DNA of 32,000 nt from Nonlabens ponticola (GTDB lineage Bacteria > Bacteroidota > Bacteroidia > Flavobacteriales > Flavobacteriaceae): contig NZ_CP034549.1 of the NCBI RefSeq assembly GCF_003966335.1, positions 1,020,001-1,052,000 on the forward strand. The letters run 5' to 3'. Position numbers and translations under genes: made by a program. Positions 74 to 30,565 of this stretch are shown one piece after another (positions within the stretch are counted from its first letter, which is position 1; each line of letters begins with the position of its first letter). Under the pieces are notes generated by a model. The model made no database searches. It was not told the origin of the DNA and was given only the letters and a program-made list of their open reading frames with translations.

Positions 74-1387
74 TTGATGTTTAAAAGAAACAACATGTCA
101 ACTTCAAATTTTGCAACCCAGTCATTACACACAGGTCATGACTTCAAAAACAACGGTGGTACAAGAGCAGTGCCGCTCTATCAATCCACTAGCTATGTGT
201 TCAACAACAGCGATCACGCAGCAAATCTGTTCTCGCTCGCCGAGCCTGGTTTTATCTACACCAGGATCAATAACCCAACGGTAGATGTGCTGGAACAGCG
301 ACTCACCGCTCTAGAAGGTGGTCTTGCAGCCGTGGCAACCGCCTCGGGAACCAGCGCCATTTCAACAACGCTACTTACCTTATTGCGTGCTGGCGATCAT
401 ATCGTCGCTAGTAATTCGCTCTATGGCGGTACTTATAACTTGCTTTCGGTGACACTTCCTAGATTGGGTATCACGACCACATTTGTCAATCCTAATGATG
501 ATGACGCTTTCGCGAAAGCGGTACAAGAAAACACCAGAGCCATATTTGTAGAGTCTCTAGGTAATCCCAAACTTGATGTGTTAGATCTCAAAAAAATCAG
601 TGTACAAGCCAAAGATGCCAAAGTGCCATTGATCGTAGATAATACAGTCGCCACACCTTACTTACTCAATCCTATTGAGCACGGCGCAAACATCGTCATT
701 CATTCATTGACCAAGTATATCAACGGTAACGGTACAGCTCTAGGCGGCATCATCATCGACGCAGGAACCTTTGATTGGACAAACGGCAAATTCCCAGAAT
801 TTACAGAGCCATCGCCAGGATACCATGGTCTGGTTTACAGCGAAGCGCTGGAAGCTGCTGCCTTTATTGCCAAAGTGCGAATAGAAGGCCTGCGTGATCT
901 AGGTGGTGCGATATCACCGTTCAATGCATGGCAAATCATTCAAGGTTTAGAAACCCTACAATTGCGTATTGAAAAGCACAGTCAAAGCGCACTGGAATTA
1001 GCTAAATGGCTACAAACTCAAGAACAAGTAGAATGGGTCAACTATCCAGGATTAGAGTCCAGCGATTACTACGATCTGGCAAAAAAATATCTGCCTAAAG
1101 GACAAAGTGGTATCGTTACTTTTGGAGTAAAAGGTGGTTATGAAAGTGCCAAAAAAGTAGTCGACAGCGCTCAGGTATTCTCTTTGCTAGCCAACATAGG
1201 CGATACAAAATCCTTGATCATTCACCCAGCAAGCACCACGCACCAGCAGCTTAAGGACGAAGATCAGCTTAGTACTGGTGTGACAAAGGATTTGATCAGA
1301 CTATCCGTTGGTCTTGAAGATATAGAGGATTTGAAACAAGATCTCGTCAACGCATTTGCAGCCATCAAATCTGGAGTTACCGCCTAG
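74..1387 (+). CDS. metY: O-acetylhomoserine sulfhydrylase (PLP-dependent Cys/Met metabolism family)
   Basis: 437-aa ORF with family hallmarks: NPT..LEQRL..LEGG, SLTKYINGNG carrying the PLP lysine, and C-terminal RLSVGLED. It is the first gene of a metY-metX-hom cluster. The true start may be ATG 95 (MSTSNF...). Confidence 0.85.
   Translation: MMFKRNNMSTSNFATQSLHTGHDFKNNGGTRAVPLYQSTSYVFNNSDHAANLFSLAEPGFIYTRINNPTVDVLEQRLTALEGGLAAVATASGTSAISTTLLTLLRAGDHIVASNSLYGGTYNLLSVTLPRLGITTTFVNPNDDDAFAKAVQENTRAIFVESLGNPKLDVLDLKKISVQAKDAKVPLIVDNTVATPYLLNPIEHGANIVIHSLTKYINGNGTALGGIIIDAGTFDWTNGKFPEFTEPSPGYHGLVYSEALEAAAFIAKVRIEGLRDLGGAISPFNAWQIIQGLETLQLRIEKHSQSALELAKWLQTQEQVEWVNYPGLESSDYYDLAKKYLPKGQSGIVTFGVKGGYESAKKVVDSAQVFSLLANIGDTKSLIIHPASTTHQQLKDEDQLSTGVTKDLIRLSVGLEDIEDLKQDLVNAFAAIKSGVTA
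505..520. repeat. 16-bp perfect palindrome CGCTTTCGCGAAAGCG (iterated palindrome family), inside metY
   Basis: Read directly from the sequence. Translated in frame as A-F-A-K-A (codons from 506). Confidence 0.95.
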
Positions 1388-4300: not shown

Positions 4301-4917
4301 TAGATCATAGCAATTATCAGGATTATAATTCCGCTTTCGCGAAAGCGGAACCCAGCAAAATTATCGATACAGTATTAGAGCAGGCGCACAAGCCTATAGT
4401 GACGACTAACTTCAGGCCGTATGAAGTAGCCATATTGCACGCTGTGGCAAGTGTGGATCCTAACGTACCAGTTGTGTGGTGCGATACAGGTTACAACACG
4501 CCGCAAACATACAGACACGCCATCGAGGTAATCGAGAAATTAGGTCTAGACGTGTCCACGTATGTGCCGCAACAAACGGTGTCTTATAGAAATGAAACGC
4601 TAGGAATACCTACGGTGGACGATTCCAATCATGCGGAATTTACTAGACAAGTCAAACTAGAACCTTTTCAGCGAGCGATGGCGCATTTTCAGCCAGATGT
4701 GTGGTTCACAAATTTGCGCGCAGGCCAGACCAATTTTAGAGATTCTATTGATGTCCTCTCATACAGTAAGGATGGCGTACTCAAGGTGAGCCCGTTTTAT
4801 CATTATGATGATCAACAACTTGACGAATATCTAGCAAAACACGATCTACCCAATGAGTTTAAATATTTTGACCCAACCAAAGTCGAGTCAAACAGAGAAT
4901 GCGGTCTTCATGCCTAA
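4297..4917 (+). CDS. cysH: phosphoadenosine phosphosulfate / adenylylsulfate reductase family protein
   Basis: 206 aa with the family C-terminal ECGLH motif. It sits directly upstream of cysDN. Only two Cys residues are present, so there is no CC...CxxC Fe-S signature. Confidence 0.7.
   Translation: MIDHSNYQDYNSAFAKAEPSKIIDTVLEQAHKPIVTTNFRPYEVAILHAVASVDPNVPVVWCDTGYNTPQTYRHAIEVIEKLGLDVSTYVPQQTVSYRNETLGIPTVDDSNHAEFTRQVKLEPFQRAMAHFQPDVWFTNLRAGQTNFRDSIDVLSYSKDGVLKVSPFYHYDDQQLDEYLAKHDLPNEFKYFDPTKVESNRECGLHA
4329..4350. repeat. 22-bp perfect palindrome TTCCGCTTTCGCGAAAGCGGAA, inside cysH-like gene
   Basis: Read directly. Translated as S-A-F-A-K-A-E. Confidence 0.95.
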
Positions 4918-5809: not shown

Positions 5810-7054
5810 ATGAATGTATTGAAGATTGCTACCGCAGGTAGCGTGGATGATGGAAAAAGCACCTTGATAGGCAGATTGTTGTACGACACGCAATCGCTAC
5901 CTACGGACAAACTTGAGGCGATAAAAAAGAGCAGCGAGAAGAAAGGATACGATTACCTAGACCTATCGCTAGCTACCGACGGCCTTGTTGCAGAGCGTGA
6001 ACAAGGCATCACGATTGACGTGGCGCACATCTATTTCTCGACACCAGACCGCAGCTACATCATCGCAGACTCGCCAGGCCATGTAGAATACACGCGAAAT
6101 ATGATCACTGGCGCCAGCACCAGCAAGGCCAGTATTATCTTGATCGATGCTAGAAAAGGCGTTGTCGAGCAGACCTTTAGGCATTTTTATATCAACCATT
6201 TATTGCAGACCAGTCACTTGATCATAGCGGTCAATAAAATGGATCTAGTAGATTATGACGAGTCCGCTTTCGCGAAAGCAGTACAACAATTCCAATCTCT
6301 GCTAGACAAACACCCGTCGGAAAAGCGAAAGGTGCATTTTGTGCCAGTAAGCGCACTCAAGGGCGATAACGTCGTGAGCAAATCTGCCGAAATGCCATGG
6401 TATCAAGGAAGCCCAATCTTAGAAAACCTATCCAAAATAGATACGATTGCGGAAGACTCGCAGAGTTTCTTACAAGTCCAGAATGTCATACGTCCCAAGA
6501 CCGAAGAATATCATGACTACCGTGGTTTTGCAGGACGCATCAGAGGCGCACATTTATCAATCGGCGACCAGATTACCGTGCTGCCGTCCATGAAGACAAG
6601 CACCGTTGACGGTATTTATTTTAATGGCGCTAAGTATGACGAGGCGCCAGTGGGCAGTTCAGTTAGTGTGACTTTGAAAGATGAGGTCAACGTCGATCGC
6701 GGCGATATTTTGATGACGCAACCACCAGCCGATCTTGAACTAACCAAAAACATTCAAGCCACCATCTGCTGGATGGACAGCACGCCATTGCGACCGCGCA
6801 CTAAATTTCACTTACAATACGGTACTCAACGCATGACTTGCCGTGTAGAGCAAATCACCTCAAAAAAATCAGCAGATTTCCACCAGGATATCATCGATGT
6901 CGATCAACTCGAACTCAATGACATCGCCACAATTCAGCTCAAACTGAGCAAACCTATTCCAGCGATCACATACGACCAATCAAAAGAACTCGGCCGCTTC
7001 ATTCTTATTGATCCACAAAGCAGAAATACTGCTGCCGTTGGGTTCATTGAATAA
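5810..7054 (+). CDS. cysN: sulfate adenylyltransferase subunit 1 (GTPase), without a fused APS kinase domain
   Basis: G1 GSVDDGKST, G3 DSPGH and G4 NKMD motifs. At 414 aa there is no C-terminal CysC domain. It starts 1 nt after the cysD stop. Confidence 0.9.
   Translation: MNVLKIATAGSVDDGKSTLIGRLLYDTQSLPTDKLEAIKKSSEKKGYDYLDLSLATDGLVAEREQGITIDVAHIYFSTPDRSYIIADSPGHVEYTRNMITGASTSKASIILIDARKGVVEQTFRHFYINHLLQTSHLIIAVNKMDLVDYDESAFAKAVQQFQSLLDKHPSEKRKVHFVPVSALKGDNVVSKSAEMPWYQGSPILENLSKIDTIAEDSQSFLQVQNVIRPKTEEYHDYRGFAGRIRGAHLSIGDQITVLPSMKTSTVDGIYFNGAKYDEAPVGSSVSVTLKDEVNVDRGDILMTQPPADLELTKNIQATICWMDSTPLRPRTKFHLQYGTQRMTCRVEQITSKKSADFHQDIIDVDQLELNDIATIQLKLSKPIPAITYDQSKELGRFILIDPQSRNTAAVGFIE
6266..6279. 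repeat. 14-bp perfect palindrome GCTTTCGCGAAAGC, inside cysN
   Basis: Read directly. Translated as A-F-A-K-A. Confidence 0.95.
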
Positions 7055-9057: not shown

Positions 9058-9162
9058 GAGTTATAAAGAAAGGTTCAGGGATTAGACCCGTTGAGACCTT
9101 GGCAACCCTGCAACTGCAGAAGGTGCCTCATTCTACCACGCTTTTGTGGACAGATAACGAGC
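9058..9162 (+). promoter_or_regulatory. SAM-I (S-box) riboswitch aptamer
   Basis: The sequence gTTATaAAGAaAGG..AGGGA..GaCCCgtTGAgaCC..GGCAACC..ctgcaactgcagAAGGTGCctcAtTC..CCACgcttttGTGGacAGATAACgag matches my recalled SAM-I consensus. P1 is GTTAT (9060-9064) paired with ATAAC (9154-9158). The P4 hairpin is CCAC/GTGG. It lies upstream of metH-metF and is followed by a U-rich tract (9178-9190). Confidence 0.8.
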
Positions 9163-9193: not shown

Positions 9194-9209
9194 CGCTTTC
9201 GCGAAAGCG
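9194..9209. repeat. 16-bp perfect palindrome CGCTTTCGCGAAAGCG, intergenic (between riboswitch and metH start)
   Basis: Read directly. It follows the U-tract immediately. Confidence 0.95.
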
Positions 9210-10320: not shown

Positions 10321-13027
10321 TAAACAAGTGAACGAATTTAGACCACTCAAACTTAGCGGACTCGAACCGCTAGTCATTACTCCCGAAAGTAATTTTGTCA
10401 ATGTAGGCGAGCGTACCAATGTAGCGGGTTCCAAAAAATTCTTGCGTTTAATCAATGAGGATAAATTTGACGAGGCACTGGAAATAGCAAGAGATCAGGT
10501 GGACAATGGTGCGCAGATCATCGACATTAACATGGATGATGGAATGATCAATGGCAAGGCTGCCATGGTCAAATTCCTCAATCTCATAGCAGCAGAACCG
10601 GACATTTCGCGGGTGCCTATCATGATCGACAGTTCCAAATGGGAAATCATCGAGGCTGGATTGCAGGTTGTTCAGGGAAAATGCGTGGTCAATTCCATCA
10701 GCCTTAAGGAAGGCGAGGAAGAATTTGTCAAACACGCCAAAGCTATCAAACGCTACGGCGCCGCCGTGATCGTCATGGCCTTTGATGAAGTAGGTCAAGC
10801 AGACACCTATGAACGCCGCATTGAGATTGCCAAGCGCAGTTACGATATCCTGGTGGATAAGATAAATTTCGCGCCAGAGGACATCATTTTTGACCTGAAC
10901 ATATTTCCAGTGGCAACTGGAATGGAAGAACATAAACTCAACGCACTCGACTTTATCAATGGCACGCGTTGGGTGCGAGAGAACCTGCCGCATGCCAGCG
11001 TAAGTGGTGGCGTGAGCAATGTGAGTTTCAGCTTTCGTGGCAATAACAAAGTGCGTGAGGCCATGCATAGTGCCTTTCTATTTCATGCTATAAAGGCTGG
11101 AATGAACATCGGTATCGTGAACCCAGCACTGCTGGAAGTTTATGACGATATCGATAAGGAACTGCTGGAGTATGTAGAAGATGTCTTGCTCAATCGTCGG
11201 GATGACGCCACTGAACGACTACTCGATTATGCCGAGAGCGTTACTCAAACAGTAAGAACCAGCACGATAGATAACAGTTGGCGTGAAACACCTCTACAGG
11301 ATCGAATCACACGAGCTCTTATTAAAGGTATTGACGCCTACATCATAGAAGATGTCGAGGAAGCCAGACAAGTATCCAGCGCGCCGATCGAGGTCATAGA
11401 AGGTCACTTGATGACAGGTATGAATGTCGTCGGCGACCTGTTTGGTTCTGGAAAAATGTTCCTACCGCAAGTAGTCAAGAGTGCACGCGTTATGAAAAAG
11501 GCGGTAGCCTATCTGTTGCCCTACATTGAAGCAGAGAAAGAAAAGAATTTAAAAGAAAATCCTGATTTTCTTTCCAGCACCAGTTCGCCAAAGGTATTGA
11601 TGGCCACCGTAAAAGGTGACGTGCATGACATCGGGAAAAACATTGTTTCGGTAGTACTTGCATGCAATAATTATGAGATCATTGATCTAGGCGTCATGGT
11701 ACCACCAGAAAAAATTCTGGATGCTGCAATTGAACATCAAGTGGATATCATTGGCCTGAGCGGACTCATCACGCCGTCGCTGGATGAGATGGTTTATATC
11801 GCCAAGGAGATGAAACGACGCAATTTTGAGGTGCCTTTGATGATAGGTGGTGCGACGACTTCGCGAGCGCATACGGCCGTCAAGATTGCACCAGAATATG
11901 ACGGAACCATCGTTCACGTGAATGATGCCAGTCGTGCGGTAACCGTCGCTGGAGAATTGACTGGTGATAAGGGTGATGACTATCACGCTTTCGCGAAAGC
12001 TAAAAAAGAAGAATACACTAAACTGCGCAATGACTTTTTAGGTAGGGCCAAGAAAAAGGATTTCCTAACGATTGAGCAGGCACGAGAAAATAAACTACAA
12101 TTGGATTGGAGCAATTACCAACCTGTGAAGCCGAAGGAACTTGGCGTTCATGAGTTGGAAGCAATTGATTTAAAAGAAGTTGTTCCATACATTGACTGGT
12201 CGCCGTTCTTCCGCAGTTGGGATTTGCATGGTCGTTATCCTGATATTTTGACCGATGCCGTCGTGGGCGAGCAAGCGACAGATCTTTTTGCAGATGCTCA
12301 AGAAATGTTGAAGAAAATCATTGATGAGAATTGGTTAGTGGCAAAAGCACTCTACGGTTTGTTCCCAGCAAATTCCAATGAGCAGGATGACATAGAGGTC
12401 AAGGGAACTGATCAGGATTTTATATTCAGAACCTTGCGCCAACAATCCAAAAAAGCGGTTGGAAAACCTCAAATCGCACTATCTGACTTCATCGCACCAC
12501 AGGAATCCGGCGTTCAAGATTATATAGGAGTATTTTGTGTGAGCACAGGTTTTGGTGTTCCAGAACGAGCTGCGCAATTTGAGAAGGATCACGACGATTA
12601 CAATTCCATCATGCTCAAAGCTCTTGCCGACCGACTCGCCGAAGCGCTAGCCGAATATCTGCACCTAAGAATACGTAAGGAATTCTGGGGTTATGCCAGC
12701 GACGAGCAGTTGGAAAACAATGACTTGATCAAAGAAGCCTATAAAGGAATACGACCTGCTCCAGGTTATCCAGCCTGTCCAGATCACTTGGAAAAAGAGA
12801 CGATTTGGGAATTGTTGCAAGTAGAAAAACGCATAGGCGTAAAGCTTACGGAAAGCCTTGCCATGTGGCCGGCAGCCAGTGTTTCCGGCTACTACATTGC
12901 ACATCCAGAATCACGCTACTTTGGGCTGGGCAAGATTAAGGAAGATCAGGTCAAGGACTATGCAGACCGTAAAGGAATCTCTTTTGCGAAAGCGGAAAAA
13001 TGGCTCAACCCAAACATCGCTGATTAA
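10313..13027 (+). CDS. metH: methionine synthase, pterin-binding + cobalamin-binding + AdoMet-activation domains
   Basis: 904 aa with the B12-binding DVHDIGKN (DxHxxG) and [10 protein letters not shown] motifs. The activation domain carries [12 protein letters not shown]. Confidence 0.9.
11987..12000. repeat. 14-bp perfect palindrome GCTTTCGCGAAAGC, inside metH
   Basis: Read directly. Translated as A-F-A-K-A. A one-mismatch copy at 12981-12995 (CTTTTGCGAAAGCGG) in the same gene reads S-F-A-K-A-E. Confidence 0.95.
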
Positions 13028-14010: not shown

Positions 14011-15204
14011 ATGACGTATCATGTTTTAATGTTGTTGGTTTGTTACGCCCTGCCTGTCGTGACCGCACTTGGGCAGGCAGGTTTCGCGAAAGCGGGCTTC
14101 TCACAATCTAATAGCAACTCTACCAGCAATGATAAAAATCTCGATAAAATTTTTACAATCGACGCTTCCTACCTGTACGGGACGATCCTGCAACACAATC
14201 CAGATATCTCGCATTTGATCACAGATCATCCTACGGCGATCCTTTTGAGTTATAACCGCAAGACTTATGGTGGCCAAGAATGGCAGTCGCGCTACAATTT
14301 CCCAGACTACGGTTTTAGTTTTGCCTATCAGGACATGAAAAATCGATTTCTAGGTGAGGCTTATGGTGCGTATGCGCATTATAACTTTTACTTTTTTAAT
14401 CGCAACATGCAGTTTAGAGTAGGGCAAGGAATCTCTTACATGACGAGACCTTTTGACGTGGATAGCAATCCGCAGAATAATGCCTATGGTACCCGATTGA
14501 CTAGTTCGACTTATTTGCTGGGTAATTATAGGAAAGAGAATTTATTTCATGGTTTTGGTTTTCAAGTAGGAGCGAGCATCATCCATTATTCAAATGCTAA
14601 TGTGCGTGCGCCCAACAACTCTACTAATACATGGTTGTTCAACGCTGGTGTCAATTACACATTTAATCATGAAGAGATTCCAGAATATAAGATATGGCCT
14701 AAGAGAAAGTACACGGAGCCTATAGGATTGACAGCGGTCGCGCGTCTAGGTTTTAATGAGAGTGACTATCGCGGAAGTGGACAATATCCGTTTTATGATT
14801 TTAGCGTTTATCTGGACAAGCGCATCAACATCAAGAGCAGCCTGCATGCTGGTTTAGAACTTTTCATTGCAGAATTCTTAAAGGAATACCGTGATTACAG
14901 AGTTAATAGCTTTCCAGAAGATGATATTGATGGTGACGAGAATTTCCAGAGAGCAGGAATTTTTGTAGGTCACGAGTTGCACTTGGGAAAAACAAGTTTG
15001 CTGTCGCAGTTAGGTTATTACTACTACCAGCCCATACCTTTTGAATCCAGATTTTATAACCGTCTAGGATTACAACGCAGACTGACCGACAATATATTTG
15101 CCAGCGTGACCGTAAAAGCGCATGGCGCCAAAGCCGAAGGCGTTAGCCTAGGGATAGGCTACAGATTTGAGAATATCTTTAAATCAAAACTAGAGAAGTT
15201 ATGA
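14011..15204 (+). CDS. acyloxyacyl hydrolase / lipid A deacylase (PagL-like) outer-membrane protein
   Basis: 397 aa with a hydrophobic N-terminus, beta-barrel-like alternating aromatic pattern, and an HYSNANVRAPNN (H-x-S-N) signature recalled for the PagL-like family. The N-terminal 30 codons are largely encoded by the 59-bp repeat. Confidence 0.55.
   Translation: MTYHVLMLLVCYALPVVTALGQAGFAKAGFSQSNSNSTSNDKNLDKIFTIDASYLYGTILQHNPDISHLITDHPTAILLSYNRKTYGGQEWQSRYNFPDYGFSFAYQDMKNRFLGEAYGAYAHYNFYFFNRNMQFRVGQGISYMTRPFDVDSNPQNNAYGTRLTSSTYLLGNYRKENLFHGFGFQVGASIIHYSNANVRAPNNSTNTWLFNAGVNYTFNHEEIPEYKIWPKRKYTEPIGLTAVARLGFNESDYRGSGQYPFYDFSVYLDKRINIKSSLHAGLELFIAEFLKEYRDYRVNSFPEDDIDGDENFQRAGIFVGHELHLGKTSLLSQLGYYYYQPIPFESRFYNRLGLQRRLTDNIFASVTVKAHGAKAEGVSLGIGYRFENIFKSKLEKL
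14035..14093 (-). repeat. 59-bp composite palindrome-hairpin element, copy A (inverted relative to copy B)
   Basis: Exact reverse complement of 24890-24948 by hand alignment. It contains TTTCGCGAAA and an 8-bp stem CCTGCCTG/CAGGCAGG. Confidence 0.9.
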
Positions 15205-16079: not shown

Positions 16080-16675
16080 AGAAGCGTGATAGGCATTTCT
16101 GCTCTGTAATTTGCCCAGCCCATTTTTAAATGAACCACATTATCATCATTAGGTGAATACAGCGCGATGCTCAAATCCTCTAGGCTATCATCTACCGTGC
16201 TTACTGGAATTGTAATAGTCACGATGTCAAGAGCTGCATTGTGAGAGAAATTTCCCCAACCGTCATTCTCAGCATTAACATGAATCGTCCACTCATTCTT
16301 ATTAGGAACCACAACTAGTGTGTAACGTCCTGCTACCAGTACCTGATCGCCTATTTTGGCATCTTGTAATAGCAGCAATTCTGTACTTTCATTAGCACCT
16401 AGACGCCATTTTTCACCGTATTTAGTAATACCAGCCTTGCGGTCATCACTTTCTCTAAAAAGCGTGCGACCCTTAAGTGATGGACGGCCGTATAATACTC
16501 TAATGGCTGGTTGCAGAGCAGCTTTTTGCTCGTCAGTTTTCGCGAAAGCTCTCTTAGGAGCATCTGCTGGAAAATAGGCGACATCCATCGGGCTCTTGTC
16601 GGCGCCAGCAAAATCTTGTGCGTTTACAGTAAAAGTCATTGCGGCTGCGGCAATGCATAAAATCAAATTTTTCAT
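16076..16675 (-). CDS. DUF2911 domain-containing secreted protein
   Basis: Signal peptide MKNLILCIAAAAMTFTVNAQ. The SPMDVAYFP, YGRPSLKGR, WRLGANEST and AGRYTL..VPN..EWT pattern is recalled for DUF2911. Confidence 0.6.
   Translation of the reverse strand: MKNLILCIAAAAMTFTVNAQDFAGADKSPMDVAYFPADAPKRAFAKTDEQKAALQPAIRVLYGRPSLKGRTLFRESDDRKAGITKYGEKWRLGANESTELLLLQDAKIGDQVLVAGRYTLVVVPNKNEWTIHVNAENDGWGNFSHNAALDIVTITIPVSTVDDSLEDLSIALYSPNDDNVVHLKMGWANYRAEMPITLL
16535..16550. repeat. palindrome family copy AGTTTTCGCGAAAGCT (one mismatched pair), inside DUF2911 gene
   Basis: Contains the exact TTTCGCGAAA core. Read on the minus strand as R-A-F-A-K-T. Confidence 0.85.
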
Positions 16676-21571: not shown

Positions 21572-22428
21572 AAAATGTATATCTGATAGGAGTAGGATTG
21601 ATAGGTGGCTCAATGTTGCTGGATTTGAGAGCTCATTATCCAGAAGCTGTCTTTTATGGAATCGATCATAATGATGATCATCTGGATCAAGCGATATCCT
21701 GCGGCGTTGTTGATCACAAAGCAACGATGGAAGATCTTATAAATGCAGATCTAGTCATCGTCTCAATTCCCGTAGATGCTACGGTCAATTTGCTTTCACA
21801 AGTTCTCGATAATATAAATGATGACAGTCTAGTCATGGATGTAGGATCGACTAAAGAGGCCATTTGCGCATCAGTAGCAAATCATAAAAACAGGCGACAA
21901 TACCTCGCTACACATCCTATTGCAGGAACTGAATTTTCTGGACCACAAGCAGCGATAAAAGATCTTTATAAAGGCAAGACCATGATCGTTTGCGAGGTGG
22001 AGAAAACCGCTTTTGCACAACAGGAATTAGGCAAAGGATTATTGGAAAAGCTGGGTATGCGAGTTAGATATATGACACCAGCAGCGCACGACAAGCACAT
22101 AGCATATGTGTCCCATTTATCGCATATTTCCAGTTTTATGCTGGGTAAAACCGTGATACAGGAAGAAGCTAACGAGCGCGATATTTTTGATCTCGCCGGT
22201 AGTGGATTTGAGAGCACTGTGCGATTGGCCAAGAGCTCGCCTGCCATGTGGACGCCTATCTTTGCACAAAATAAAGAGCACGTTATAGCTGGACTGGATG
22301 GTTATATTGATAATCTAGTTAGCTTTCGCGAAAGCTTAAAAAACGACAATCACACAGCCATTTATAACGAGATGGCGCAAACCAATAGAATTAAAACCAT
22401 ACTGAAAGGAATACAAAATGGAAAATAA
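21568..22428 (+). CDS. tyrA: prephenate dehydrogenase
   Basis: IGVGLIGGS Rossmann motif and HPIAGTEFSG catalytic region. Operon context supports the call. Confidence 0.85.
   Translation: MKNVYLIGVGLIGGSMLLDLRAHYPEAVFYGIDHNDDHLDQAISCGVVDHKATMEDLINADLVIVSIPVDATVNLLSQVLDNINDDSLVMDVGSTKEAICASVANHKNRRQYLATHPIAGTEFSGPQAAIKDLYKGKTMIVCEVEKTAFAQQELGKGLLEKLGMRVRYMTPAAHDKHIAYVSHLSHISSFMLGKTVIQEEANERDIFDLAGSGFESTVRLAKSSPAMWTPIFAQNKEHVIAGLDGYIDNLVSFRESLKNDNHTAIYNEMAQTNRIKTILKGIQNGK
22321..22336. repeat. 16-bp perfect palindrome AGCTTTCGCGAAAGCT, inside tyrA
   Basis: Read directly. Translated as S-F-R-E-S (second frame). Confidence 0.95.
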
Positions 22429-24558: not shown

Positions 24559-25037
24559 GAGCGATCGTTCAAAGAGTGAAAAATGCCAGCGTCAGTATAG
24601 ACGGTCAGATGAAAGGTCAAATTGATAAAGGCTTACTCATTTACCTGGGAATAACTCATGATGACACCCAAGATGATGCCGATTATCTAGTACGTAAAAT
24701 TCTGGGAATGCGAATTTTCAATGATGAAAACGCCGTTATGAATTTATCAATTGAGGACACTGATGGTGAGATTTTACTGATTTCTCAGTTCACACTTTAT
24801 GCACAAACGAGAAAAGGCAATCGACCTAGTTATGTCGCTGCTGCACGCCCAGAAGTCGCATTACCGTTATATAATTATGTTATTAGTCAGCTTTCGCGAA
24901 ACCTGCCTGCCCAAGTGCGGTCACGACAGGCAGGGCGTAACAAACCAATAGCTACAGGTACGTTTGGTGCAGATATGCAGGTAGCATCCACTAATGACGG
25001 GCCTGTGACAATAATTGTTGATTCTGTTTCTAAATAG
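24555..25037 (+). CDS. dtd: D-aminoacyl-tRNA deacylase carrying an in-frame repeat-derived insertion
   Basis: MRAIVQRV, SQFTL, GNRPS, FGADMQV and NDGPVT motifs. It is 160 aa versus about 145-150 aa for typical Dtd. The extra segment coincides with the 59-bp element. Confidence 0.85.
   Translation: MRAIVQRVKNASVSIDGQMKGQIDKGLLIYLGITHDDTQDDADYLVRKILGMRIFNDENAVMNLSIEDTDGEILLISQFTLYAQTRKGNRPSYVAAARPEVALPLYNYVISQLSRNLPAQVRSRQAGRNKPIATGTFGADMQVASTNDGPVTIIVDSVSK
24890..24948 (+). repeat. 59-bp composite palindrome-hairpin element, copy B
   Basis: GCTTTCGCGAAA CCTGCCTG CCCAAGTGCGGTCACGA CAGGCAGG GCGTAACAAACCAA. Identical to the reverse complement of 14035-14093. Translated as LSRNLPAQVRSRQAGRNKP within dtd. 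Confidence 0.9.
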
Positions 25038-29323: not shown

Positions 29324-30565
29324 ATGAGATTACAGCTACAGGCGAGCTCATCGCAACAAGAGCAAACTCCAATAATCAATATTACAGGATCAAAAAGTGA
29401 GAGCAACCGCCTATTGATCTTGCAGCAATTGTTTCCTAACCTGCAGATTAAGAACCTATCCACTAGTGATGATACGCAGCATTTACAGGAAGCCCTTGAA
29501 TCAACAAACGAGATTCTAGACATAGGTCATGCAGGCACTGCCATGCGGTTTATCACTGCACTCATGGCAAGTAGCGACCTACAGAGAACAGTAACAGGTA
29601 GCGACCGCATGAAGCAGCGACCTATTGGGATTTTGGTCGATGCATTGAGATACTTGGGCGCGCAAATTGATTATGTAGAGAATGAAGGTTTCCCGCCATT
29701 GAAAATTAAGGGTAATCAACTTCATGGTGGTGAAGTCACCATGGATGCTGGTGTTTCTAGCCAGTTCTTAAGCGCCTTGCTGCTGGTAGCGCCACGGTTT
29801 GAGAATGGCTTGACCTTAAGGCTTTCAGGCAAATTGACTTCACGCCCCTATCTAGAAATGACGACAGGATTGATGCAACTTTTAGGTCTTGATGTAACGT
29901 TTGAAGGCCAAGTCATCAAGGTCAAACATCAATCACATATCACCGATCGGGAAATTGTTGTAGAATCAGACTGGAGTAGCGCTGGTTACTGGTATAGTTG
30001 GGTGGCGATGCAGCCAGCTGGCTACAGTGTGCAGCTCAATTCTTATAAGGACAGCAGTTTACAGGGCGATCGTGCACTGGTTGAGATATATGAGAAATTG
30101 GGTGTGCAAACCACCTTTAATTTGACAGGAATCGTGCTCACGTGCATGACCGATTTTGAACCGCCGCACTATCTGGAATTTGATCTCACGTCACAACCTG
30201 ATCAAGCGCAAACAATCTTTGCTACTTGTTTGGGGCTTGGTATCAATTTGAAAATGAAAGGTTTGCATACTCTTAGAATCAAAGAAACAGACCGTATAAA
30301 GGCAATGGATGTTGTTGGGTCACGCTTTCGCGAAAGCAAAATTCTAACAACCACCGATACCATAGAAATAACATTCTCTCCAGATTCTAGCATTACACAA
30401 GAGTTCATCGTGGACACCTACCAAGATCACCGTATGGCACTAGCCTTTGCACCACTATGCTGCAAGACGACCGTGATAATTAACGATGCAGATGTGGTTA
30501 CTAAAAGCTATGGCGAGTATTATAAGGATCTGGCTGCCGTAAAGGTCGATATAACAGAAATTTAA
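29324..30565 (+). CDS. aroA: 3-phosphoshikimate 1-carboxyvinyltransferase (EPSP synthase)
   Basis: GSKSESNRLLIL, GHAGTAMRF, RPIG and KETDR motifs. 413 aa. Confidence 0.85.
   Translation: MRLQLQASSSQQEQTPIINITGSKSESNRLLILQQLFPNLQIKNLSTSDDTQHLQEALESTNEILDIGHAGTAMRFITALMASSDLQRTVTGSDRMKQRPIGILVDALRYLGAQIDYVENEGFPPLKIKGNQLHGGEVTMDAGVSSQFLSALLLVAPRFENGLTLRLSGKLTSRPYLEMTTGLMQLLGLDVTFEGQVIKVKHQSHITDREIVVESDWSSAGYWYSWVAMQPAGYSVQLNSYKDSSLQGDRALVEIYEKLGVQTTFNLTGIVLTCMTDFEPPHYLEFDLTSQPDQAQTIFATCLGLGINLKMKGLHTLRIKETDRIKAMDVVGSRFRESKILTTTDTIEITFSPDSSITQEFIVDTYQDHRMALAFAPLCCKTTVIINDADVVTKSYGEYYKDLAAVKVDITEI
30324..30337. repeat. 14-bp perfect palindrome GCTTTCGCGAAAGC, inside aroA
   Basis: Read directly. 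Translated as R-F-R-E-S-K (second frame). Confidence 0.95.

Follow-up and report, generated by a model that had tools for sequence, protein, structure and literature searches.

The dtd gene of Nonlabens ponticola, which encodes D-aminoacyl-tRNA deacylase (Dtd) and lies in the 32-kb stretch of DNA analysed here (hereafter the window), carries a 33-nt hairpin repeat that has very probably been inserted in frame at a palindromic insertion hot-spot and would be read through as an additional loop of the enzyme. This judgement covers the insertion and its reading; the mechanism by which the hairpin moves is weighed separately below. The first-pass annotation of this DNA had proposed that Dtd contains an additional loop encoded by a repeat element, a reading now supported by empty sites in orthologous genes, by excision of the insert in silico, by the presence of the invariant Dtd residues and by the predicted fold.

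The 33-nt insert in dtd and its second copy

The 59-nt segment at 24890-24948 of the window, which the first-pass annotation had singled out as a repeat, is found a second time in the window, in opposite orientation at 14034-14092, where 58 of 59 bases are identical (one mismatch); no such recurrence is expected (0 in 100 shuffles). The identity is made up of 12 nt of a host palindrome, a 33-nt insert, 2 nt of the palindrome and 12 nt of a common right flank. The dtd site thus reads GCTTTCGCGAAA, then CCTGCCTGCCCAAGTGCGGTCACGACAGGCAGG, then GCGTAAC, and the true insert consists of the 33 nt at 24902-24934, or 11 codons. Its excision in silico brought back the 14-nt palindrome GCTTTCGCGAAAGC (in the context GCTTTCGCGAAAGCGT) with no host base lost or duplicated, and the excised gene encodes a 149-aa Dtd reading ...SQLSRKRNKPIATG... 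(LSRKRNKP), like the uninserted Nonlabens orthologues. The insert splits a single Lys codon (AA^G) into Asn116 and Gly127, by which K116 becomes N-LPAQVRSRQA-G and the residues N116-G127 (NLPAQVRSRQAG) stand in place of one lysine. Since the insert is divisible by three and free of stop codons in this frame, it would be read through and add 11 residues. The net gain of about 12 residues noted earlier is corrected to 11 (149 to 160 aa). It had also been pointed out that 59 is not a multiple of three and that either the boundaries must differ or native codons must have been lost; the former holds, the insert being 33 nt, and no native codon is missing.

To read the site in related genes, the DNA of seven orthologous loci (cited here by locus number) was inspected codon by codon. 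Empty sites were seen in L002 (aGG CTT TCG CGA AAG CGG) and L006 (TCG CTT TCG CGA AAG CGA), both of which read LSRKR. A larger mobile unit of 47 or 59 nt that includes the right flank was considered and rejected for dtd, because the gene would lose its frame on excision of such a unit and because the flank corresponds to codons of the dtd orthologues by homology. The insert itself can be written CCTGCCTG-CCCAAGTGCGGTCACGA-CAGGCAGG and has a perfect stem of 8 bp closed by a loop of 17 nt; folded alone as DNA it has an energy of -8.3 kcal/mol (z = -2.4), and the RNA hairpin in dtd sense with its mRNA flanks folds at about -17.6 kcal/mol. Five of the six reading frames through the element are open. 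Neither hairpin copy appeared terminator-like in scans for intrinsic terminators, and no Rfam match was obtained at the hairpin sites.

The second copy, which is the reverse complement of the 33-mer without any mismatch, is located 10.8 kb away in the N-terminal signal-peptide region of a gene for a PagL-like acyloxyacyl hydrolase, whose annotated protein (391 aa, NCBI) includes the element. The two copies are identical at every base and lie in opposite orientations and in different reading frames, and the encoded peptides are unrelated, that in Dtd being basic and that in the hydrolase (LPVVTALGQAG) hydrophobic. More than 20 hydrolase orthologues read ...[FL]AFAKA..AQ at this site, which is the same palindrome in another frame; the N. 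ponticola protein reads ...LLVCYA-LPVVTALGQAG-FAKAGFSQ, and excision gives ...CYAFAKAG. Both N. ponticola insertions are thus found at GCTTTCGCGAAA^GC, in two unrelated genes. Also common to both are the 12 nt beyond the palindrome (GTAACAAACCAA; 24937-24948 and 14035-14046), which code LVCY of the signal peptide in the hydrolase gene and in dtd are homologous to orthologous codons (..R-N-K-P/E..). A chance origin of this shared flank is very unlikely, which suggests that it was copied together with the hairpin.

Recurrent inserts in dtd and the state of the enzyme

The dtd palindrome was found to carry at least four different inserts across the Nonlabens lineages, of 33, 21, 45 and about 39 nt, all of them multiples of three. 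The N. ponticola 33-mer is located at palindrome position 12^13; a related 21-nt hairpin (CCATGCCTTCCGGCAGGCAGG) is present at 9^10 in L005; L004, L007 and L001 (N. antarcticus) share a 45-nt insert at 6^7 that is unrelated to the hairpin; and L003 has about 39 extra nt in a degenerate palindrome. Two alleles of the N. dokdonensis-like dtd (L002:3001-3456 and L004:50-550), about 97% identical, differ by a clean 45-nt indel at GCTTTC^GCGAAAGC, and inserts are therefore gained or lost here over short periods. The 45-mer (AAGGAGTTTCACGACGAAGAAGTCTACGCTGAGCGAAGTCGAAGT) folds no better than shuffled sequences (z = 0.11), has a diverged version in N. antarcticus, and was not found elsewhere in the orthologous loci examined. 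Judged from these sequences, the dtd palindrome looks like an insertion hot-spot.

The dtd open reading frame (ORF) stays open across the insert, as had been stated in the first-pass annotation, and encodes a 160-aa protein (...YNYVISQLSRNLPAQVRSRQAGRNKPIATGTFGADMQV..., with the portion ISQLSRNLPAQVRSRQAGRNKPIATGTFGADMQV) that agrees at every residue (100% identity) with the D-aminoacyl-tRNA deacylase annotated for N. ponticola. The product matches PF02580 over the full profile (positions 1-144 of 144, residues 2-156; 2.4e-57, 193.7 bits against a cut-off of 25) and the equivalog TIGR00256 with 172.5 bits against a cut-off of 101.5. In the alignment of homologues all invariant Dtd residues are present, including SQFTL (S77-L81) and NDGPVT (N147-T152), and the columns of SQFTL and of the NxGPVT (Gly-cisPro) motif are invariant with the query included. 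The start of dtd overlaps the stop of rsgA, an arrangement that is conserved and is kept in N. ponticola. Dtd homologues are usually 148-151 aa long, and several Nonlabens-like ones have 156-166 aa, their extra residues all lying at one identical point directly after 'LSR'. Opposite the insert, each of the five solved Dtd structures compared (H. influenzae, A. aeolicus, E. coli, P. falciparum and human) has a gap of 10-13 residues, in agreement with the earlier remark that the segment is longer here than in E. coli Dtd, and this sequence was seen at this position in no orthologue.

A structure prediction, which had been suggested as a check on the loop, was made with AlphaFold2 on 74 homologues (mean pLDDT 86, pTM 0.83). 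The only segment with pLDDT below 50 comprises residues 122-129, inside the insert and directly after the helix 99-116. The fold is otherwise kept: in a Foldseek search the model matched the H. influenzae enzyme (1j7g) with a TM score of 0.94 and a root-mean-square deviation of 1.4 A, and every top match was a Dtd. The simplest reading of the model is that the insert forms a flexible extra loop after the last long helix of an otherwise normal enzyme. As the predicted fold and the catalytic motifs are intact, the insertion is probably near-neutral, and Dtd would be made and active despite it.

Dtd is dispensable in some bacteria, and the interruption of a conserved small enzyme might be taken to mark an incipient pseudogene in which the open frame is incidental. 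We regard this as very improbable, in view of the intact ORF, the retention of every invariant residue, the full-length profile matches well above cut-offs, the confident predicted fold and the preserved rsgA-dtd arrangement; moreover, a second N. ponticola Dtd, which beside a pseudogene dtd would have spoken against the reading of the first-pass annotation, was not found among the best 120 homologues, where the species has one entry only. A different possibility is that the loop, which is basic and Arg-rich (net charge about +3), has been exapted to improve tRNA binding or the regulation of Dtd. Dtd binds tRNA, and several Nonlabens lineages retain an insert at the same loop. Adaptive exaptation is nevertheless very unlikely, because the inserts of the other lineages (SFTTKKSTLSEVEVR, HAFRQAG and KMRKACPEPVEGQ) are unrelated to it in sequence and charge, which argues that the site is tolerant and the loop not functional; close alleles occur both with and without an insert; the same 33 nt in another frame give a hydrophobic stretch in a signal peptide; and a loop is seen here in no solved Dtd. 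This pattern fits a tolerant site combined with a hot-spot at the DNA level.

The host palindrome and the hairpin family

Counts of the palindrome and the hairpin in N. ponticola refer to the window, that is, to 32 kb of a 2.87-Mb genome. The palindrome core TTTCGCGAAA was counted 11 times, whereas shuffled sequences lead one to expect 0.08 (about 140-fold). Its commonest form is the 14-nt GCTTTCGCGAAAGC with an NruI-type TCGCGA core, and it is sometimes extended to a perfect form of 20 or 22 nt. Nine of the 11 copies lie within long ORFs, where they read (A/G)FAK(A/T) six times, FRES twice and LSR once; two of the 11 carry the hairpin. The genes in which it lies have ordinary housekeeping roles in the metabolism of methionine, cysteine and aromatic amino acids. 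In all four genes that could be compared (dtd, the hydrolase gene, aroA and tyrA) the palindrome occupies the same codon position across species, and such sites are therefore old and maintained. The FRES copies in tyrA (window 22322) and aroA (window 30324) match L001:~502 and L002:~671, and L005:~2279 and L003:~4886, respectively, with diverged flanks; this divergence in Nonlabens-like genomes suggests that it is the DNA motif itself that is maintained. A full-text search of the literature on the motif strings returned nothing relevant to the palindrome or the hairpin. The coordinates of these features are summarized in the table.

Features of the N. ponticola window discussed in the text (positions are those of the window)
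Feature	Coordinates	Strand	Basis or remark
dtd ORF, D-aminoacyl-tRNA deacylase, 160 aa	24555..25037	+	ORF call, PF02580, TIGR00256, homologues
Left 12 nt (GCTTTCGCGAAA) of host palindrome GCTTTCGCGAAAGC in dtd	24890..24901		codes (Q)LSR and two bases of the split Lys codon
33-nt hairpin insert, 11 codons	24902..24934	+	orthologue empty sites, folding, excision
Right 2 nt (GC) of host palindrome in dtd	24935..24936		
12-nt flank (GTAACAAACCAA)	24937..24948	+	codes part of RNKP; dtd-native looking yet identical beside second copy
PagL-like acyloxyacyl hydrolase ORF	14011..15204	+	NCBI start 14029, 391 aa
GC of palindrome and 12-nt flank at second site	14035..14048		reverse complement of dtd 24935-24948
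Second 33-nt hairpin copy	14049..14081	-	exact reverse complement; read in frame LPVVTALGQAG
12-nt palindrome part (TTTCGCGAAAGC) at second site	14082..14093		orthologues AFAKA
Palindrome GCTTTCGCGAAAGC, intact	506..519		AFAKA, Cys/Met-metabolism PLP (pyridoxal phosphate) enzyme
Palindrome, intact, 20-nt perfect form TCCGCTTTCGCGAAAGCGGA	4333..4346		AFAKA, PAPS-reductase-domain ORF
Palindrome, intact	6266..6279		AFAKA, GTP_EFTU-domain (CysN-like) ORF
Palindrome, intact	9195..9208		intergenic, just downstream of SAM (S-adenosylmethionine) riboswitch
Palindrome, intact	11987..12000		AFAKA, 904-aa ORF taken as MetH by eye only
Palindrome, 13/14 (GTTTTCGCGAAAGC)	16536..16549	-	AFAK, DUF2911 ORF
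Palindrome, intact, 22-nt perfect form TTACGCTTTCGCGAAAGCGTAA	19335..19348		intergenic
Palindrome, intact	22322..22335		FRES, prephenate dehydrogenase; codon position shared with L001 and L002
Palindrome, intact	30324..30337		FRES, EPSP synthase; codon position shared with L005 and L003

One of the two intergenic palindromes in the table lies downstream of a SAM riboswitch (RF00162, 65 bits; 9058-9160, plus strand), which precedes genes for a homocysteine S-methyltransferase and MetH-like and MetF-like proteins, the first of which alone was confirmed by Pfam. This palindrome follows a T-run and may be part of the riboswitch expression platform.

To look for relatives of the hairpin, we scanned one genome per species with a hairpin pattern independent of the flanks, which listed at least 120 matches, N. 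ponticola not among them. Only Flavobacteriaceae copies with the CACGACAGGCAGG signature were counted as members of the family, and GC-rich look-alikes of other phyla were set aside. The matches listed contain a coherent set from Nonlabens sp., Aequorivita, Mesohalobacter, Psychroflexus and several metagenome-assembled genomes (MAGs), all Flavobacteriaceae, with the ends CCTGCCTGCC-(loop)-CACGACAGGCAGG, a usual form of 28 nt in intergenic regions and a size range of 21-33 nt. The N. ponticola element has the same ends and a loop 5 nt longer. Among about 24 listed sites, four are inside the same palindrome (L022, L057, L047 and, degenerate, L013), and a refined scan added a fifth palindrome-borne hairpin at L022:5063; in that scan eight split palindromes were counted, whereas 60 control palindromes with scrambled sequence gave 1.1 on average. 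About six of the ~24 listed copies are nested in the loop of another copy, and about 40% of the listed flavobacterial copies lie inside another palindrome or hairpin. Hairpins within hairpins or tight clusters, made up of the 28-nt form, were observed at L051:1341, L099:2972, L116:5299, L067:2567-2606, L043:147 and L070:5589-5644 (Aequorivita, Mesohalobacter and further Flavobacteriaceae).

The metagenome contig L138 contains a 27-nt hairpin copy at GC^TTTCGCGAAAGC, which is the palindrome position of the N. ponticola copies with the hairpin in the opposite orientation, in frame in a 236-aa ORF. This ORF (L138:11681-12388, minus strand) has a GTSKGG (GxSxG-like) motif, reads through the hairpin as ..SFRE-TCLSCLGRQ-GD.. 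and gave no Pfam or NCBIfam match. The scan from which it came, the second of the metagenomes, otherwise returned mostly an unrelated repeat with a constant flank gttccttcacttatcg and no right palindrome half, and L138 alone was relevant. The loop specific to N. ponticola gave 0 matches in the first metagenome scan, and the hairpin was not found in the viral contigs searched. A peptide search with the five open translations, aimed at further N. ponticola proteins with the element, gave no scoring match, short matches being unable to reach significance among 5.8 billion sequences.

The lengths of the copies bear on whether they are translated. The four copies in long ORFs measure 33, 33, 27 and 21 nt and are all multiples of three, as against four of 24 intergenic copies (Fisher p = 0.003, from a hand-curated table). 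Such a length filter is what selection for read-through predicts, and it argues against ribosomal bypassing or removal of the hairpin from the mRNA. Programmed bypassing is known from the mitochondrial 'byp' inserts of Magnusiomyces and from T4 gene 60, and the stable RNA stem-loop formed in dtd sense resembles those of known bypass elements. That the hairpin is left untranslated is extremely unlikely all the same, as lengths divisible by three and freedom from stop codons, seen in all four copies in long ORFs, would be needless under bypassing, whereas 28 nt is the prevailing length between genes. Nor do the codons on the two sides (AAC ahead of the hairpin, GGG/CGT behind it) match as take-off and landing codons would.

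We likewise give almost no credence to the view that no mobile element is involved and that the hairpin was made locally at each site, through expansion of the palindrome or a template switch during replication. Such events are indeed common at palindromes, and the L003 dtd palindrome resembles an expanded inner palindrome. The two 33-nt copies 10.8 kb apart are identical in every base, though, and the same stems and CACGACAGGCAGG signature occur in many genera; the N. ponticola hairpin therefore cannot be an independent local invention. For the 45-nt and the L003 inserts a local origin could still hold if each turns out to be present only once in its genome.

Some further repeats came to light in these scans. 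The contigs L128-L149 (JGI metagenome contigs Ga0075163, Ga0268298, Ga0073902 and others) contain a multi-copy repeat, ...aGCC GCTTTCGCG CCTGCCTGC(A/C)GACGCAGTCAGGCAGG GTTCCTTCACTTATCG..., of which a single contig has as many as 3 copies. From its sequence it looks like a larger, different element, which has the half-palindrome and the stems in common and its own constant flanks. In Nonlabens sp. M30B61 (L008:2780-3380), a 371-nt tandem duplication lies downstream of a tRNA-Leu gene; each unit comprises a small ORF (GIY-YIG-like by eye only) and a tRNA 3'-end fragment (GCAGGTTCGA^TTCCTGTCATCCGC), and a 28-nt hairpin sits in what would be the T-loop of the fragment. Two independent insertions into tRNA T-loops were ruled out here, since the tRNA 3' fragment is tandemly duplicated. 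A nearly identical 40-nt motif with interleaved complementary blocks, CCTGCCTGCCCTG(C/T)CT(A/G)CCG(G)ACAGGCAGGCGG(C/T)AGGCA..., was seen in widely separated phyla (Patescibacteria, Chitinophagaceae, Saprospiraceae, Mariprofundus and Gammaproteobacteria; L055, L058, L059, L060, L063, L065, L071, L081, L096, L098, L108, L113, L115 and L119) and had no Rfam match.

Movement of the hairpin and known systems

In our interpretation a very small, non-autonomous hairpin, here of 33 nt, entered a 14-nt palindrome already present in dtd (GCTTTCGCGAAA^GC) and duplicated none of the target. The hairpin would first enter one palindrome copy and then spread among palindromes by homology-guided copying, for example by ectopic template switching or gene conversion in which the dispersed palindrome provides the homology. 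In N. ponticola the direction may have been from dtd to the hydrolase gene with some flank co-converted; a hydrolase copy templated from the dtd locus is suggested because the shared flank is homologous to the codons of dtd orthologues.

Any mechanism has to account for the lack of a target duplication, for insertion in both orientations and for targets that often form hairpins themselves, whether the palindrome or the loop of another copy. In any one genome the hairpin always has the same position and orientation in the palindrome: both N. ponticola copies are at 12^13, all three of the MAG MFD03250.bin.3.131 at 9^10 and both of the CAYZJT MAG at 3^4. Between genomes position and orientation differ although the element ends are the same. 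The constancy per genome and the shared 12-nt flank point to homology-guided copying, and if the element is real, spread between palindromes by this route has in our estimate a probability a little short of even. On the same premise, a trans-acting nuclease of single-stranded DNA (HUH/RAYT-like; RAYT, REP-associated tyrosine transposase) that recognises hairpins is the main alternative and somewhat less probable, and what probability remains falls to some other mechanism.

A more specific form of the enzymatic explanation leaves the identity of the insert untouched and holds that it is a REP/REPIN-type element moved by a cognate RAYT (a Y1 HUH transposase) acting on single-stranded hairpins, for which the palindrome, the loops of other hairpins and the like would be favoured targets. 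REP elements have a conserved 5' GTAG-type tetranucleotide next to the hairpin, and no GTAG is present at the hairpin foot on either strand of CCTGCCTGCC...CACGACAGGCAGG or in the flanks. A short GC-rich hairpin in an AT-rich genome, inserted in both orientations without target-site duplication, would suit such an enzyme, as would the large share of copies that lie within another palindrome or hairpin; RAYT subclasses 2.4 and 2.6 occur in Bacteroidetes and are associated with 'atypical secondary structures' (PMC6006769). We consider this origin unlikely, given that neither the window nor 10 ORFs beside hairpin clusters yielded a Y1/HUH gene, that the position in the palindrome varies between genomes despite identical element ends, and that the shared 12-nt flank in N. 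ponticola is unexpected under clean transposition.

Several points weigh against the interpretation of the insert as a mobile, near-neutral element that spreads by homology. A loop of low pLDDT is no proof of harmlessness. The N. ponticola evidence comes from the 32-kb window only, with two hairpin copies, and the nearest available Dtd is 64% identical. As to mobility, empty sites of the 33-mer are known in distant orthologues only, and a clean, recent presence/absence for the 45-nt insert only. Many copies of the family lie outside any palindrome, which means that palindrome homology is not the sole route of insertion. The constancy of position rests on two or three sites per genome and would suit a genome-specific enzyme too; no transposase was found in the window or beside the hairpin clusters, and the enzyme hypothesis is thereby neither supported nor excluded.

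With regard to significance, proteins can acquire new loops when selfish repeats colonise genes in frame, a route that has been little studied and for which Rickettsia is the main example. The 33 nt found here are about the smallest size for a mobile element, and the target is defined to the base. The repeated, different inserts at one dtd codon form a natural series of Dtd loop variants, with and without inserts. For annotation, such inserts can be mistaken for loops specific to a lineage, so that alignments, and inferences drawn from structures, could go astray.

The in-frame repeat in Dtd, taken alone, is a new example of a known phenomenon. Rickettsia palindromic elements (RPEs) are inserted in frame into unrelated housekeeping genes, are translated there as additional peptide segments and are compatible with the fold of the host protein (PMC10969869), and the first-pass description of the dtd insert as unusual is tempered accordingly. 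Like the RPEs, the hairpin is a palindromic repeat in frame in unrelated genes (dtd and the hydrolase gene), both ORFs being open. It differs from them in its size (33 nt, family 21-33 nt, against about 100-150 bp), in its flavobacterial rather than alphaproteobacterial host, in the absence of a conserved encoded peptide, in the different frames and orientations at the two sites and in the targeting of a host palindrome; kinship with RPEs was judged by size, which is incompatible.

REP/REPIN elements are resembled in the short GC-rich hairpins, the many dispersed and mostly intergenic copies in other Flavobacteriaceae, the clusters and the nested or inverted arrangements. In addition to the missing GTAG, the N. 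ponticola hairpin departs from them in that both copies are intragenic, lie in translated reading frames and are targeted to a palindrome, and in that no RAYT (PF01797) gene was seen in the window or beside hairpin clusters. [quoted passage not shown] It is also unlike the 'byp'-type inserts, which break the frame or bear stops.

A parallel to the targeting is offered by cyanobacteria. In Nostocaceae, SDR5 and further small dispersed repeats reportedly occur as insertions within HIP1, the highly iterated palindrome of cyanobacteria (Elhai et al. 2008). According to passages in two papers, SDR5 of Nostocaceae is a very small repeat found at a precise position within HIP1 (PMC5861425; PMC4390886), and HIP1 itself is over-represented 15- to 300-fold (PMC5861425). 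The host palindrome described here is likewise short, perfect, about 140-fold over-represented, common in genes and conserved at orthologous positions; in contrast to HIP1 it has at least 14 nt and an NruI-like TCGCGA core, not GCGATCGC, and belongs to Flavobacteriaceae, not cyanobacteria. As with SDR5 in HIP1, a module of a few tens of nt is found at a defined position in a hyper-abundant palindrome, the comparable cases being both N. ponticola sites, L022 (twice), L057, L047, L013, L138 and L005. The differences from SDR5, in a comparison made through secondary citations, are the other phylum, the palindrome (GCTTTCGCGAAAGC against GCGATCGC) and the unrelated sequence of the element; besides, the position in the palindrome varies here between genomes (3^4, 9^10 and 12^13).

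We found no description in the literature of so small an element, of HIP-like targeting precise to the base in a flavobacterium, or of repeated hits on one dtd codon. In its behaviour the target palindrome of Nonlabens resembles HIP1, for which function and origin have stayed unresolved for decades, and it likewise attracts tiny modules; with an independent second case in marine flavobacteria that can be cultured, one could test by comparison what keeps such palindromes up, what cuts them and how modules of at most 30 nt move. We tentatively suggest that Nonlabens and its relatives among the Flavobacteriaceae have a counterpart of the HIP1/SDR system, in which a hyper-abundant and positionally conserved palindrome of 14-22 nt (GCTTTCGCGAAAGC), located mostly in genes, would serve as a landing pad for hairpin modules of 21-45 nt; these may spread between its copies by homology-guided copying and would repeatedly give rise to in-frame loops in housekeeping proteins, with at least four independent hits on a single codon of dtd across the genus.

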